A stretch of 64,000 nucleotides of DNA, taken from an uncultured Candidatus Saccharibacteria bacterium. Its GTDB lineage: Bacteria; Patescibacteriota; UBA1384; CAILIB01; JAUSJZ01. Shown here piece after piece: positions 5,850 to 39,208 of the stretch (within the stretch, counting starts at the first letter, position 1; each line of letters begins with the position of its first letter). The stretch spans positions 15,652 to 79,651 of the forward strand of contig CAYQWZ010000004.1 of the NCBI GenBank assembly GCA_964421635.1, in the 5' to 3' direction. The notes below the pieces were generated by a model. It ran no database searches, was not told the DNA's origin, and worked only from the letters and a program-made list of their open reading frames with translations. Both the position numbers and the translations under genes were made by a program.

Positions 5850-6407
5850 TTGAGTAAAAAAAGATTTAACAACAATTCGAAAAATAATTGGCTTCCAGTT
5901 AACGAGCATATTTATGCTAATGAGCTAATGGTTATTGACGAAAGTTCGGGAAAAACTGAACTAATGTCAAAATCAAAAGCCCTAGCAGTTGCAGCCGAGC
6001 AGGAGTTAGATTTAGTGCTTGTCTCACCAAAAGCAAGACCTCCGGTTGCTAAAATTTTAGACTACGGTAAATACAAATATGAACAGAGCCGTAAAGATAA
6101 GCAACAGAAGAAACAGTCAAAAGCCGGGGAGACAAAAGAGATTCGTCTGAGTGTCAGAATGGGAGAACATGATCGTGAACAGCGAATTAAAAAAGCTTCA
6201 AAATTTCTTAAACAAGGCTACGGTATATCTTTATCACTGCGCTTCCAAGGAAGAGAAAATATTTTTCGGGAAAAAGGTTTAGAGGTATTAGAAGATTTTG
6301 CCAAGCGGCTTAATATGAATTTTACTGCTAGACCAAGATTCGCGGGTAACATAGTAAACGTTCAACTGAAAAAAAATGAAAGCGAAAACACACAAGAGCA
6401 AAGCTAA
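5850..6407 (+). CDS. infC: translation initiation factor IF-3
   Basis: NELMVIDESSGKTELMSKSKALAVAAEQELDLVLVSP matches the IF-3 N-domain, and C-terminal conservation follows. The true start may be a non-ATG codon as in many infC genes. The gene leads the conserved infC-rpmI-rplT order. Confidence 0.9.
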   Translation: MSKKRFNNNSKNNWLPVNEHIYANELMVIDESSGKTELMSKSKALAVAAEQELDLVLVSPKARPPVAKILDYGKYKYEQSRKDKQQKKQSKAGETKEIRLSVRMGEHDREQRIKKASKFLKQGYGISLSLRFQGRENIFREKGLEVLEDFAKRLNMNFTARPRFAGNIVNVQLKKNESENTQEQS

Positions 6408-11590: not shown

Positions 11591-12100
11591 GTGTTAAAAA
11601 TAATCACCGAACCCAATAAAGTTTTGCACCAAAAATGTGAGCCTATCACTGAGTTTTCTGATGACCTAAAAAAGTTAGCCTCAGATATGCGCGCTACTAT
11701 GCACAGTAACAAGGGTATGGGTTTGGCCGCACCACAAATAAATAAATCTATTAGATTAACTGTTATTGAATATCTACCCAAAGATAAAGACGGCAATTTA
11801 ATCAAAAGTGAGGTTATTCCCTTTATAGCGCTTGTTAATCCTGAAATTACTTGGACTAGTTCAAAAACAGTACAAATAGCAGAAGGATGTCTCTCTATTC
11901 CCGGATTTGAAGGAGAGGTAATTCGGCCAAAAAGGGTCAAAGTTAAAGCTCAAAATTTAAATGGAGAAAAAATTGTACTTAAGGCTTCGGGTCTTTTGGC
12001 TCGCATCGTTCAACACGAAATAGATCACTTAAACGGCATTTTGTACTCTGAGAAATTAGCGCCAAACAGCTCTTTGCAACCTGTAAAACCAGCTATCTAA
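11591..12100 (+). CDS. def: peptide deformylase
   Basis: Carries all three PDF motifs: GLAAPQI, EGCLSIPG and QHEIDHLNG. Confidence 0.92.
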   Translation: MLKIITEPNKVLHQKCEPITEFSDDLKKLASDMRATMHSNKGMGLAAPQINKSIRLTVIEYLPKDKDGNLIKSEVIPFIALVNPEITWTSSKTVQIAEGCLSIPGFEGEVIRPKRVKVKAQNLNGEKIVLKASGLLARIVQHEIDHLNGILYSEKLAPNSSLQPVKPAI

Positions 12101-35054: not shown

Positions 35055-35205
35055 CTGTCTATATATATCATCTTTTTGTCCTTCTGTTAACCCCCTATTG
35101 CTAAAAACACCCCAGATTGGTACTGTTTAATTGATTGAAGGTAGGTTTTTGTTTATTTTGGGTCATAGAAACCTTATTGTTTAGAAGACAATCTATGATT
35201 GGCTT

Positions 35206-35225
35206 CCTGCCTGCCGGCAGGCAGG
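35206..35225. repeat. perfect 20-bp GC palindrome CCTGCCTGCCGGCAGGCAGG, copy 1 of 3
   Basis: Self-complementary 20-mer in the folD / tRNA-Val intergenic region. Near-identical copies occur at 47095-47114 and 47169-47189. Confidence 0.7.
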
Positions 35226-35304
35226 CGTAAGGAGGAGACTCACGAAGTGAGGCTCTGGGAATTTGTGCCCGACGCAAAATGAACAAAAATCTACTTTTAA
35301 CAAT

Positions 35305-35381
35305 GGGTGCGTAGCTCAGCTGGTTAGAGCGTCTGCTTGACATGCAGGAGGTCAGAGGTTCAAGTCCTCTCGTACCCACCA
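35305..35381 (+). tRNA. tRNA-Val (anticodon GAC)
   Basis: Acceptor GGGTGCG/CGTACCC, D-arm GCTCAGCTGGTTAGAGC, anticodon loop TTGACAT, T-arm GAGGTTCAAGTCCTC, and CCA encoded. Confidence 0.85.
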
Positions 35382-37600
35382 AAATCAAACTGTAATTTAT
35401 CTCCTTTGTCTTTGGTTACACTAACCGTCATTTTCTGGTTTTCTTCCTCCTCCGTTTTTTGCTCTATTAATTTCGAGGCTAACTGATCTAAAATTTTCTC
35501 TTGAATAACGCGCTTTATTGGTCGTGCACCGAATAACGGGTCAAAGCCAATTTTTACAATCCAGTCGATAACTTTGTCGTCTACGCTTAATTTTATTTTC
35601 TTTGGCTTTAAGCGCTGCTGCACTTCTTTTATTTGCAACTTAGTAATCTCTTTTATTTCTGCTTTTGATAAAGGATTAAAAACAATTATGTGATCAACTC
35701 GATTAATAAACTCTGGCTTAAACTCTTTCTTTAATTGGTCTAATACTTTCTTTTTTGTGTCATTAAACTCTTTCTTCTCTTTACTATCGGCGCCGTCTGA
35801 AAATCCTATCGCTTGAGCGTTCAGCGCTTCTGTACCAATATTTGAAGTCATAATAATAATGGTATTTTTGAAGTTAACCACTCGCCCTTTTGCATCTGTT
35901 AGCCGGCCATCGTCAAGCACTTGTAGTAACACATTGAAAACATCTGGAGATGCTTTCTCAATCTCATCGAACAGAACTACACTGTATGGCTTTCGGCGAA
36001 CCTTCTCTGTTAACTGCCCACCCTCTTCGTAACCAATGTAGCCCGGAGGAGCACCGACTAACTTGGCTGCTGAATGCCGCTCCATATATTCGCTCATATC
36101 TACTCGAATAATTGCTTCCTCGTCATCGAACAGCTGTCTGGCAATAGTCTTGGCTAATTCAGTTTTACCAACTCCCGTTGGTCCTAAAAAGATAAATGAA
36201 CCAATTGGTCTTTGCTCTTCGTTTACACCTGCTCGCGACCGACGGATGGCGTTGGCTACCGCCGCTATAGCATCAGCCTGCCCAACAACATCTGCCGATA
36301 ATTCGTCTTCAAGATTAATTAATTTCTCAGCTTCTGAGGCCAACATGCGTTTAACGGGCACTCCCGTCCATTTAGAAACAACGGATGCAATATCTTCTTC
36401 TGTAATTTCTTCTTTCAGCAGTTTTGAGTCTTGAGGAATTTTTCGCAAAAATTTGCTCTGCTCTTCGAGCTGATCTTTCAAACTTGGAATCTTCTGATAT
36501 TTCAGCTGAGCCACTTTGGCTAAATCTCCTTCACGCTCTAATCGCTCAATGCTAGCCCGCGCTTGGTCAAGCTCAGATTTGAACTCCCGAATTTTACTGA
36601 TCACTTCTCGCTCTGCTTTCCACTGCGTTTCAATTGGCTCAATCTCTTCTTTTAACACAGCCACTTCTTTTACTAATTCCGCTCGTCGTTCTCGGCTTTC
36701 CGCATCCTTCTCTTTAGATAGGGCCTCTTGCTCAATTTCTAACTGCAATAATTTTCTTTTTAAGTTATATAAATTTTCAGGCTCGCTCTCGATGTCAATT
36801 CTCAAACCAGATGTTGCCTCGTCAATTAAATCGACTGCTTTGTCAGGTAAAAATCGGTCTGAAATATATCTGTTGGAAAGTTCCGCGGCAGCTACAATGG
36901 CTGAATCTGAAATACGAACTCCTTGGTGAAGCTCATACTTTTCTTTTAATCCACGAAGGATGGCAATAGTGTCGTCAACCGTTGGCTCTAAAACCTTGAC
37001 CGGCTGAAAGCGGCGCTCAAGGGCGGTATCTTTCTCAATGTGTTTCTGATATTCCTTAAGCGTGGTGGCGCCAATCATTCTTAACTGCCCTCTAGCCAAA
37101 AATGGCTTTAACATGTTAGCGGCATCTAAACTGCCTTCTTGAGCGCCCGCCCCAATTAAGGTGTGTAGTTCATCTAAAAACATTATGTAGCGCTCCGGCT
37201 CCGCCGTAATCTCTTTCAAAATAGCTTTAATGCGAGCTTCAAATTCGCCGCGAAAAGCACTGCCCGCCATAATTGAGCCCAAATCTAGGGCGACAATTGA
37301 TTTATTCTTTAGCATATCTGGTACATCTCCAGCCACAATTCTCTGGGCCAATCCTTCTACTATGGCTGTTTTTCCAACCCCCGGCTCCCCTATTAGCACC
37401 GGATTATTTTTTGTACGACGCGAAATTACTTGCATTACTCGACGGATTTCTTCATCTCGCCCAATAACTGGGTCGAGCTCGCCATTCTTTGCTTTTTCAG
37501 TTAAATCAATGGTGAAAACATCTAGTGCGGTTTTTTGATCAACCTGAATTCCAGGTGGAAATACTCCTCCTGGTCCCATAGGTGCCCCTGGTATGTTCAT
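35360..37600 (-). CDS. clpB: ATP-dependent chaperone ClpB lacking the N-terminal domain
   Basis: Two AAA+ modules ([15 protein letters not shown] and [13 protein letters not shown]) separated by a long coiled-coil middle domain characteristic of ClpB. 746 aa, starting directly at NBD1. Confidence 0.88.
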
Positions 37601-37605
37601 AAAGT

Positions 37606-38196
37606 TTAGTTTACTTTTAGCTTCCTGACTTTGTGTTTTAAGATAGGCATTTTAACAGTCAATATACCGTTTTCAAAATTGGCAGTAGATCTACTAGGGA
37701 TAACGGTTAGAGGCAGATTAACTACCCTGTCAAAACTAGCGGCGGTAATCTCTCTCAAGTAGTATGTCGGCAAATCTACATCTGGTTTAATTTTACCCTT
37801 TATTTGCACCTTATAGTTGCCAACCTCAACATCTATCTCTTTCTCATTATATCCAGCCAGATTAGCCTGCATAACTAAAACATTCTCAACCTTTTTCAAA
37901 TTGACTCTAGGCCAAGATATACAATCACTTATCGCATGCTGGTCTTGCTCAATATTTTGGCTGGAATTTTCCGCAATTTGGCTAGAATCTTCCGCAATTA
38001 GTTCAGAAATTGTGAGCGAAAAAACCTCCGCCATCTGCATAGCTAGTGGTAAGGATGGCAGATATTTGCCACTTTCAAGTGCAATAATGGATTGTCGAGA
38101 AATACCCAAAGTATCTGCTAGTGCTTCTTGGGTCAATAGTTGGTCTTTTCGTAAATCCTTAATTCTTAAATGGATAGTTATCGGTTTTAAATTCAT
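37606..38196 (-). CDS. XRE-family HTH fused to an Hsp20/alpha-crystallin domain
   Basis: The N-terminal 65 aa are a Cro/C1-type HTH (LTQEALADTLGISRQSIIALESGK). The C-terminal ~100 aa match the small-Hsp alpha-crystallin fold (NVLVMQANLAGYNEKEIDVEV...NFENGILTVKMP). It lies immediately upstream of and co-directional with clpB. Confidence 0.65.
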   Translation of the reverse strand: MNLKPITIHLRIKDLRKDQLLTQEALADTLGISRQSIIALESGKYLPSLPLAMQMAEVFSLTISELIAEDSSQIAENSSQNIEQDQHAISDCISWPRVNLKKVENVLVMQANLAGYNEKEIDVEVGNYKVQIKGKIKPDVDLPTYYLREITAASFDRVVNLPLTVIPSRSTANFENGILTVKMPILKHKVRKLKVN

Positions 38197-38280
38197 ATCT
38201 GTAATGTAAAGTCTACTTTACATTTTGTCAAGTTTATGGTATGATATTTAAGGTGGATTGATCCACTAACTGAACAACAT

Positions 38281-38665
38281 GGGGCCGAATAAATTAGACG
38301 TTAAATTACGTTTCGCAAATTGCATGTCGCAGCAATGAGTTTATCTGCGTTATTAAATGAACTTCCTTTAAAGACACGGAAATAGTCTTATTAGCAAGAT
38401 CAAGCAGGCTTTTAGTCCGCTAGCTCTTGCGCCAGTAGTCGCCTAATTGACTACCGTTCCCTTACCAATATCACACTTGGTGAGACCAGAGCGTCATATT
38501 GTGTGATCATCAATTTGCTCGCACCGTCACTTTGATGATTTTTGGTGCAACAGTCTATAGTGTTTAGCTGTCCTTATACCTATAGACTTAAAAAAGGGCA
38601 GAGAGCATGGTCAGTTTAGGAATGTTATTTATCGGACGCGGGTGAGACCCCCGCCGGCTCCACCA
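38281..38665 (+). ncRNA. ssrA: tmRNA (SsrA)
   Basis: tRNA-like ends: the 5' GGGGCCGAATAAATTAGACG resembles E. coli GGGGCUGAUUCUGGAUUCGACG, and the 3' GGACGCGGGTGAGACCCCCGCCGGCTCCACCA resembles GGACGGGGGUUCAAAUCCCCCCGGCUCCACCA. The acceptor helix GGGGCCG/CGGCTCC pairs. A possible tag frame ends ...SPLALAPVVA-TAA at 38444-38446, which is tentative. smpB lies 2 kb away. Confidence 0.8.
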
Positions 38666-38739: not shown

Positions 38740-38745
38740 AATCGT

Positions 38746-39200
38746 ATAGACGCGCTTACCCTCAAGGCCTTACTAGGTCGAGATACCACTCTGCTAACCT
38801 GTCCACAGGCTTGCAAAGCTCTCTGGACAACCAATCATCGGCACGATGAAACAAAAGCAAGAGACCGTCTCCAACCAGTAATCGTCGAGAGGCAACTAAC
38901 CAGCTGCGTGAGGAATCACAGATCATGAGGAGCCTCCTTCAGCTCGGCCATCCGATGGGCTTGTAGCCACTACATGTGCCCTATGCCAAAAGTGCATCTG
39001 AGGTGGTAACAAGGCCGTTTCGCCAGTCCAAAGGCGCAATTCTGTTTGATCGACTCCGGTCGACAACAGGGAAGTTCGCTCGCAAGAGTATGCCACCCGC
39101 GCTGCGGGTCTGGACACGCGATTCCGCCGCACCATCAAAGGTGTAGGCTACAACTAGCGACAACTTGTTGGCCCCGCCGTCAGGCGGGGTCTTTTCTTTT
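38746..39200 (+). ncRNA. candidate ~455-nt GC-rich structured ncRNA of unknown class
   Basis: GC-rich relative to the flanks with no sense ORF of 60 aa or more. It contains a palindromic hairpin (GTCGACTCCGGTCGAC). It runs from a consensus promoter to the terminator CCCCGCC-GTCA-GGCGGGG-TCTTTTCTTTT at 39172-39200. Confidence 0.45.
39172..39200 (+). terminator. intrinsic terminator ending the second GC-rich unit
   Basis: 7-bp GC stem CCCCGCC/GGCGGGG with loop GTCA, followed by TCTTTTCTTTT. Confidence 0.6.
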
Positions 39201-39208
39201 ACATACAT

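Follow-up and report, generated by a model that had tools for sequence, protein, structure and literature searches.

What would a DNA-binding domain do on a small heat-shock protein encoded directly ahead of a disaggregase gene? The question arises from a 64,000-nucleotide stretch of contig CAYQWZ010000004.1 (positions 15,652–79,651; GenBank assembly GCA_964421635.1) from an uncultured Candidatus Saccharibacteria bacterium, hereafter the window. Here, a minus-strand gene (37606..38196) encodes a 196-residue protein that joins an N-terminal helix-turn-helix (HTH) domain to a C-terminal small heat-shock protein (sHSP) domain, with clpB following on the same strand. The initial annotation, made from the sequence alone, suggested a chaperone-titration regulator of clpB that belongs to none of the HrcA, HspR, CtsR or sigma-32 families. 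We propose that this fusion is an autoregulated, single-polypeptide heat-shock repressor with the fused sHSP as its sensor, and that, in Berkelbacteria-like Patescibacteria, it is likely the master repressor over a small set of chaperone genes; we put the probability of this reading at roughly two in three (about 0.68).

Both domains named in the initial annotation, a Cro/C1-type HTH and an sHSP domain, were recovered by Pfam: HTH_3 matched residues 12–66 (E 3.8e-13; 49.7 bits, cutoff 23) and HSP20 matched residues 103–190 (E 1e-10; 42.1 bits, cutoff 20.8). An AlphaFold2 model computed from a 50-sequence family alignment (mean predicted local distance difference test score (pLDDT) 84.9; predicted template-modelling score (pTM) 0.50) comprises a five-helix HTH and a beta-sandwich at residues 98–185, and the top PDB matches of this model in Foldseek were the sHSPs Hsp14.0, Hsp16.5 and HspA, with target TM-scores of 0.7–0.8. 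From N to C terminus, the protein can be divided into a Cro/C1 (XRE) HTH domain of CylR2-like subtype (residues 12–66; 37999..38163, minus strand), assigned from Pfam, invariant columns and profile matches to the PDB; an acidic polar linker, mostly disordered as judged by pLDDT and the family alignment (residues 67–97; 37906..37998, minus strand); the beta-sandwich of the alpha-crystallin domain (ACD), assigned from Pfam HSP20, Foldseek and invariant residues (residues 98–190; 37627..37905, minus strand); and a C-terminal I-x-I-like motif, L193-K-V195, read directly from the sequence (37612..37620, minus strand). The pLDDT falls below 50 at residues 76–91, which marks a disordered linker between the two domains, and with this flexible segment and a pTM of 0.50 their relative placement in the model is uncertain.

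Within the HTH, R34, Q35 and S36 are invariant columns of the 50-sequence alignment, and the motif GISRQS, which from knowledge of Cro/C1-type HTH domains we place in the DNA-recognition helix, is invariant throughout the family. Within the sHSP part, R157, A172, G177 and L179 are invariant; the conserved beta7 arginine and the A-x-x-x-n-G-v-L motif are both present, the latter reading ANFENGILTV in the window protein, and the C-terminal I/V-x-I/V motif reads KIKI or KIKV in relatives. The ACD beta-sandwich, beta7 arginine, GxL and C-terminal I-x-I are thus shared with Hsp20, IbpA and Hsp16.5; unlike these proteins, the fusion carries what is predicted to be a sequence-specific DNA-binding domain at its N terminus. 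Most members of the fusion family also share the hydrophobic N-terminal WxPF-type region of sHSPs. The window protein has lost it: the WxPFRE..DRLFED block is missing in this protein and its subclade, and the HTH and polar linker occupy that place. Neither an HrcA nor a CtsR domain was found in the fusion protein by Pfam and NCBIfam searches, and every NCBIfam model scored below its cutoff.

Turning to the DNA that such a protein might bind, we identified a perfect 10+2+10 palindrome, AATGTAAAGT-CT-ACTTTACATT (38203..38224, unstranded; core TGTAAAG-N4-CTTTACA at 38205–38222), within the interval 38197–38280 in which the initial annotation had suggested looking for an inverted-repeat operator. 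It is the sole match to this palindrome in the window even at up to three mismatches, against a chance expectation of 0.03. The palindrome is built into a sigma-70-type promoter of the fusion–clpB operon (38203..38231, minus strand; 10/12 matches in a promoter scan), with a -35 box TTGACA at 38231–38226, a -10 box TACATT at 38208–38203 and a spacer of 17 nt. Its left arm fills the spacer and its right arm overlaps the -10 box, so that a protein sitting there would keep RNA polymerase out. Since this promoter has consensus elements at the optimal 17-nt spacing and is occluded by the site, the protein is unlikely to act as an activator. The ATG of the fusion gene lies only 6 nt past the -10 box, so the predicted mRNA is probably leaderless. 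The presence and conservation of a palindromic operator overlapping the gene's own promoter is the arrangement that a CylR2-like repressor would be predicted to have.

The suggestion that the fusion should occur in other genomes held up well. Both domains were found together in 62 clusters at 90% identity (lengths 185–305 aa) in the protein database, where they are labeled at most "Hsp20 family protein", "Spore protein SP21" or hypothetical, and an exhaustive profile search of 1.84 billion proteins gave about 85–90 full-length representatives at 50% identity. A degenerate-peptide scan of GTDB species-representative genomes yielded 48 fusion loci, in metagenome-assembled genomes (MAGs) labeled Berkelbacteria (17), Saccharibacteria (15), Patescibacteria group (12) or simply "bacterium" (4). 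By sequence, then, the fusion family is real and taxonomically restricted. Typical members, of 220–260 aa, comprise the HTH and a complete sHSP (WxPFRE..DRLFED region, ACD and C-terminal I-x-I). The subclade of the window protein is short (185–200 aa), without the sHSP N-terminal region but with the ACD and an L-K-V tail retained.

As these 48 loci were picked by protein homology, they form a sample unbiased by any DNA pattern. The exact core TGTAAAG-N4-CTTTACA lies within 200 nt upstream of the start codon in 43 of the 48 species-level loci, a core with up to two mismatches in 4 more, and only 1 of the 48 is without it. A TTGACA-like -35 box stands 3 nt ahead of the core in 40/47 family loci, and in 16/47 the distance from operator to ATG is 26 nt, as in the leaderless class to which the window belongs. 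The family consensus is cTTGACAaAATGTAAAGttTnCTTTACAtT. A 14-base site that stays constant inside a core promoter while the proteins it precedes are only ~30% identical is the signature of an autoregulatory operator, and we assign the palindrome as such on this pattern of conservation. A search for further copies in the ±10 kb flanks of ~50 family loci returned only each locus's own site. MAG CAZVMH01 encodes two paralogous fusions of 246 and 251 aa (L017 and L045), and both genes have an operator of their own.

This distribution bears on two readings in which the fusion would not be a chaperone regulator. The first is that the gene encodes an XRE-type repressor of a mobile element, or an antitoxin, with an incidental sHSP fusion. 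NCBIfam matches to RstR and couple_hipB (HipB/Y4mF-like) point this way, all of them far below their cutoffs; no toxin partner is present, the neighbors are the housekeeping genes clpB, tmRNA, smpB and holA in conserved order, and both the family and its operator are conserved over many species, with the operator also found at chaperone genes. We rejected this reading on gene context and regard it as scarcely credible. The second is that the fusion is mainly a DNA-tethered chaperone for nucleoid protection or holdase localization, with an HTH that serves localization and not control. The complete sHSP of most members would suit such a role; however, the HTH belongs to a class of sequence-specific repressors, and a single palindrome placed precisely in a core promoter, present in one copy in ~84 kb, fits a regulator, which makes a tethering role very improbable.

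Does the same operator occur at chaperone genes? Metagenomes were scanned for the exact pattern TTGACA-N3-TGTAAAG-N4-CTTTACA (20 specified bases), which gave at least 119 loci. Among the matches listed, the first gene downstream was the fusion gene at about 26 loci, dnaK at 18, groES at 12 (followed by groEL where the contig allows), grpE at 3 and a Clp_N-containing Hsp100 ATPase gene at 1. In other taxa it was a gene for a small membrane protein at ~32 loci (DUF2178-like in those tested with Pfam) and an HTH-only gene at 7; the remainder were miscellaneous or truncated. Pfam confirmed HSP70, Cpn10, GrpE, Clp and DUF2178 on representative downstream genes. Where the DnaK and GroES proteins carry a source name, it is that of a Candidatus Berkelbacteria or "Patescibacteria group bacterium" MAG, taxa in which the fusion also occurs. 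The 5' leaders of the chaperone loci are 40–314 nt long, and many contain a recognizable Shine-Dalgarno sequence. None of the 34 chaperone loci among the matches listed has a CylR2-like HTH encoded nearby, and these sites must therefore be bound by a factor encoded elsewhere. Since the same promoter–operator module stands at chaperone genes in its relatives, the fusion is the likely master repressor of these genes.

Three further loci were noted. At L094 (contig Ga0209542_10102217), a 95-aa DUF3467 protein is encoded ~300 nt downstream of an operator promoter and may be a further regulon member. At L145, an operator-bearing promoter precedes a 430-aa open reading frame (ORF) with no family assigned. 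L218, a Hainich groundwater Patescibacteria contig, encodes an unrelated 121-aa HTH_3 protein (6028–6393, minus strand) ~2 kb from grpE and ~3.6 kb from an operator-bearing dnaK.

Binding sites of the known heat-shock repressors were sought at the same loci. CIRCE (TTAGCACTC-N9-GAGTGCTAA) was absent at up to three mismatches from 216 loci and the window, HAIR (CTTGAGT-N7-ACTCAAG) was absent at up to two mismatches from 38 chaperone loci and the window, and no CtsR box was found at the 38 chaperone loci. A lone CtsR-box-like match in the window (at 11925, one mismatch) lies away from chaperone genes and was taken as chance. No description of an HTH-sHSP fusion, its operator or heat-shock regulation in Patescibacteria was found in PMC open-access papers or bioRxiv. 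The initial annotation's view of the fusion as a regulator of heat-shock chaperone genes is thus sustained in a predicted form by the module that precedes dnaK, groESL, grpE and a clp gene in Berkelbacteria/Patescibacteria contigs, and its placement of the fusion outside the HrcA, HspR, CtsR and sigma-32 families by the missing boxes and the silent literature.

The HTH itself gives a clue to the origin of the system. A profile of the family matched, in the PDB, 9k3w, a 65-aa PbsX-family regulator (E 6e-22), and CylR2 (1utx; E 4e-16); these CylR2/PbsX proteins are the closest HTH by sequence among solved structures, and this HTH_3 kinship places the domain in the CylR2-like subfamily. CylR2, the cytolysin repressor of Enterococcus faecalis, is summarized in a preprint as a homodimer that binds an inverted repeat in a promoter and represses transcription (bioRxiv 10.64898/2026.09.04.749385). 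Whereas members of the CylR2 family are stand-alone single domains (~65–80 aa) that work with a separate small membrane signaling partner (CylR1 or DUF2178), the fusion has 196 residues and a covalently attached cytosolic sHSP, and there is no membrane-protein gene in its operon, where clpB comes after and tmRNA before. The targets also differ: bacteriocin or membrane-protein operons for the CylR2 family, and chaperones, as proposed here, for the fusion.

In Sphingomonadales, Alkaliphilus and other taxa, HTH-only homologs are encoded in two-gene operons with a small DUF2178-type membrane protein first, and an identical or very similar palindrome, of TGTAAAG-N4-CTTTACA type, lies upstream of these operons. 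Among the matches listed, 22 of the 32 operator loci that start with a small membrane protein have an HTH-only gene directly downstream, and most of the remaining contigs of this kind end within ~1 kb of the operator. On this sequence evidence, the CylR2-like HTH subtype and the operator travel together, and the fusion appears to have arisen by exchanging the membrane partner of a CylR1/CylR2-like module for a fused cytosolic sHSP. Operons of a membrane protein and a 70–80 aa HTH are widespread across phyla (L058–L086; Sphingobium, Blastomonas, Alkaliphilus and others), and the same two-gene CylR1/CylR2-like modules make up the ~32 listed metagenome loci (e.g., L101, L112 and L161), those membrane proteins tested with Pfam being DUF2178-like.

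The breadth of these modules also supplies the case for another account of the chaperone sites. Possibly, the fusion represses only its own gene (and clpB here), while another CylR2-like HTH protein binds the sites at dnaK, groESL and grpE and counts the fusion as merely one more member of its regulon. HTH-only proteins with the same operator are, after all, widespread, and a Shapirobacteria MAG, likewise Patescibacteria, has one of them as part of a DUF2178 module. On the other side, all 48 hits of the degenerate-peptide scan, from Patescibacteria-type MAGs, were full-length fusions with no HTH-only version among them; the GISRQS motif is invariant; a second CylR2-like HTH was not found in the window; and two proteins on one operator are less economical than one. 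We consider this account unlikely and prefer the fusion as the repressor of the chaperone sites.

That preference requires that the fusion gene and the operator-bearing chaperone genes reside in the same organisms. The two samples that yielded the fusion–clpB loci L001 and L002 also yielded an operator–groESL contig (L206 and L207), with a tetranucleotide correlation of 0.93. Another fusion–clpB locus (L092; GC content 0.535) shares its sample with another operator–groESL contig (L190; GC content 0.553), with a correlation of 0.84; the correlation with all other tested loci is near zero for L190 and at most 0.30 for L092. As a check independent of the DNA pattern, the closest GroEL homolog (P0268; 80% identity) was chosen by protein similarity alone; it belongs to GCA_030647115.1, a MAG different from the window's, and its groES is preceded by cTTGACAAAATGTAAAGCCAACTTTACATT. 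Co-residence is thus suggested by common samples and by agreement in composition and taxon label.

Several points weigh against the fusion as master repressor. The metagenome scan demanded a TTGACA -35 box, which biases its at least 119 loci toward promoters of this design. The fusion gene and an operator-bearing chaperone gene were not found within one assembled genome, and ~84 kb of the window's own organism (the window and a flank of ~20 kb, reached via proteins near both window ends) contains one operator and no dnaK, groEL or grpE, so that the regulon assigned to this organism beyond clpB is extrapolated from its relatives. At least one other Patescibacteria lineage, the Shapirobacteria mentioned above, has HTH-only homologs with the same operator, and in some genomes the chaperone sites could be read by another such protein. 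In most sHSPs, clients are bound mainly by the N-terminal region, and its loss weakens a titration model for the window protein. Finally, DNA binding by the fusion, repression and release under stress are all steps that we infer.

In the mechanism that we propose, the N-terminal CylR2-like XRE HTH would bind TGTAAAG-N4-CTTTACA as a dimer, and the bound repressor would block RNA polymerase at a near-consensus sigma-70 promoter. Its targets in the window would be its own leaderless gene and the co-transcribed clpB, possibly with the divergent tmRNA promoter; in relatives they would be groES–groEL, dnaK, grpE and the Clp ATPase gene. The ACD is the proposed sensor: under heat or proteotoxic stress, it would engage unfolding proteins or shift its oligomeric state, taking the repressor off the DNA. 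The induced DnaK, GrpE and ClpB would then clear sHSP–client assemblies, which would free the repressor and close the feedback loop.

How the ACD would sense stress admits two versions. Chaperone titration is plausible. The alternative keeps the regulon and the repressor as proposed and makes the ACD an intrinsic thermometer: the oligomer formed through the ACD and I-x-I would come apart or rearrange with temperature and so lower operator affinity directly, as in RheA, CtsR or TlpA. sHSP oligomer–dimer equilibria are strongly temperature dependent, which suits this alternative, as do the window protein and its subclade, which keep the ACD and I-x-I without the client-binding N-terminal region; the uncertain domain placement in the AlphaFold2 model and the flexible linker would also accommodate it. 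However, most members keep the full sHSP N-terminal region with WxPF, which suggests that client binding matters. The two versions are not mutually exclusive, and the computed results do not separate them: client titration fits the regulon membership and the full sHSP of most members, thermosensing fits the short subclade, and both may apply. A thermometer in place of a titration sensor is, in our estimate, possible but somewhat doubtful, and we retain the sHSP-sensing repressor, with titration as its plausible trigger.

The link to clpB from which the question arose proved to be a local one. In the window, clpB (35360..37600, minus strand; 746 aa; Pfam, TIGR03346) directly follows the fusion gene in the same orientation, as the initial annotation had it, although the gap is 5 nt (37601–37605) and not 6 nt. 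The encoded protein contains AAA, AAA_lid_9, AAA_2 and ClpB_D2-small, that is, two AAA+ modules with the long middle domain and the D2-small domain of ClpB, and matches TIGR03346 contiguously over model positions 151–847 only; no match to Clp_N was found in it with Pfam or NCBIfam. No terminator-like site was found within 35200–38400, and the two genes are probably co-transcribed.

A clpB without Clp_N directly follows the fusion in five lineages: that of the window, P0002 (L001 and L002; fusion protein 66% identical to that of the window), P0004 (L222), P0119 (L092) and P0006 (L219). The same Clp_N-less form of ClpB was identified in L001, L092, L219 and L222. In another member of the short-form subclade, P0166, clpB is not next to the fusion gene, and no clpB lies within 10 kb at any of 46 more distant fusion loci (two metagenome-derived relatives and the GTDB set). 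A general linkage of fusion and clpB was rejected when the window ClpB was compared by tblastn with 86 loci, which placed clpB beside the closest relative only. The expectation that the fusion would be linked to chaperone genes in other genomes is therefore borne out within the window's subclade and fails beyond it: physical linkage to clpB is confined to this short-form group, and elsewhere the link to chaperones is a shared operator and not adjacency. In the five lineages with adjacent clpB, ClpB is without Clp_N and the sHSP part has likewise lost its N-terminal region; this may point to a connection between the two losses.

On its other side, the fusion gene is divergent from the tmRNA gene ssrA (38281..38665, plus strand; Rfam RF00023, 59.7 bits), which was missed by ARAGORN and found by Rfam only. 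The promoter scan placed a putative tmRNA promoter at 38217..38245 (plus strand), with a -35 box TTTACA within the right operator arm and a -10 element TG-TATGAT, so that the operator may also control ssrA and co-regulate it with the heat-shock operon; the arrangement and the putative promoter that shares the operator arm are conserved in L001. Between tmRNA and holA, a GC-rich stretch of ~460 nt (38745–39205, plus strand; 0.52–0.58 versus 0.395 for the window) is free of long ORFs. A promoter-like TTGACT-17-TAATGT stands ahead of this stretch, which closes with a GC-rich hairpin and T-run and has a folding z-score of -4.1 relative to shuffled sequences; it gave no Rfam match at E up to 1 and aligns poorly with the equivalent region of L001. 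We regard it as a candidate unannotated structured RNA. Additionally, the minus-strand clpB, whose 3' end is at 35360, shares ~22 nt there with a tRNA-Val gene (35305–35381, plus strand).

Set beside established heat-shock regulators, the proposed system is familiar in logic and different in parts. HrcA and HspR act as repressors at inverted repeats, CIRCE and HAIR, in the promoters of dnaK, groESL and clpB, and each is subject to chaperone feedback, from GroEL for HrcA and from DnaK for HspR. The logic proposed for the fusion is the same in both respects. However, the DNA-binding fold is an XRE HTH in the fusion, a winged helix in HrcA and of MerR type in HspR; the operator differs from both CIRCE and HAIR; and the chaperone module lies within the repressor polypeptide, whereas it is a separate protein in the HrcA and HspR systems. 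RheA of Streptomyces represses an sHSP gene, is autoregulated and is a direct sensor of temperature; it controls hsp18 and is not itself an sHSP. ClgR of Actinobacteria, whose HTH is of XRE type, regulates clp and chaperone genes as an activator, at a different binding site. Neither has a chaperone domain, unlike the fusion. Among heat-shock repressor–operator systems, the fusion would thus represent a new regulator family with a new operator and a fused-sensor design.

A bolder form of the proposal extends the fusion to master heat-shock regulator of a whole lineage of Patescibacteria (candidate phyla radiation, CPR), with an sHSP that directly reads the load of unfolded protein, leaves the operator when sequestered by clients and is reset by DnaK–GrpE–ClpB, and sees in it a fifth type of heat-shock control in bacteria, beside sigma-32, HrcA, HspR and CtsR, that arose by replacement of the CylR1/CylR2 membrane sensor; we advance this wider version tentatively, at somewhat less than even odds.

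Patescibacteria make up a large share of bacterial diversity, with tiny genomes, and are mostly uncultured. For heat shock in this group, the analysis supplies a candidate regulator, an operator with a core of 18 bp, and a predicted regulon that comprises dnaK, grpE, groESL and clp genes besides the gene of the regulator itself; no known heat-shock control system corresponds to any of the three. Proteins now labeled "Hsp20 family protein" or "hypothetical" gain a candidate function, and the operator can be used to predict stress regulons in metagenomes. In evolutionary terms, the fusion would be a CylR1/CylR2-type signaling module rewired through a sensor swap. It would also be a natural, minimal chaperone feedback circuit in which sensor chaperone and repressor are one polypeptide, so that one purified protein and a 22-bp DNA would suffice for a direct test of the titration model, which has long been debated.

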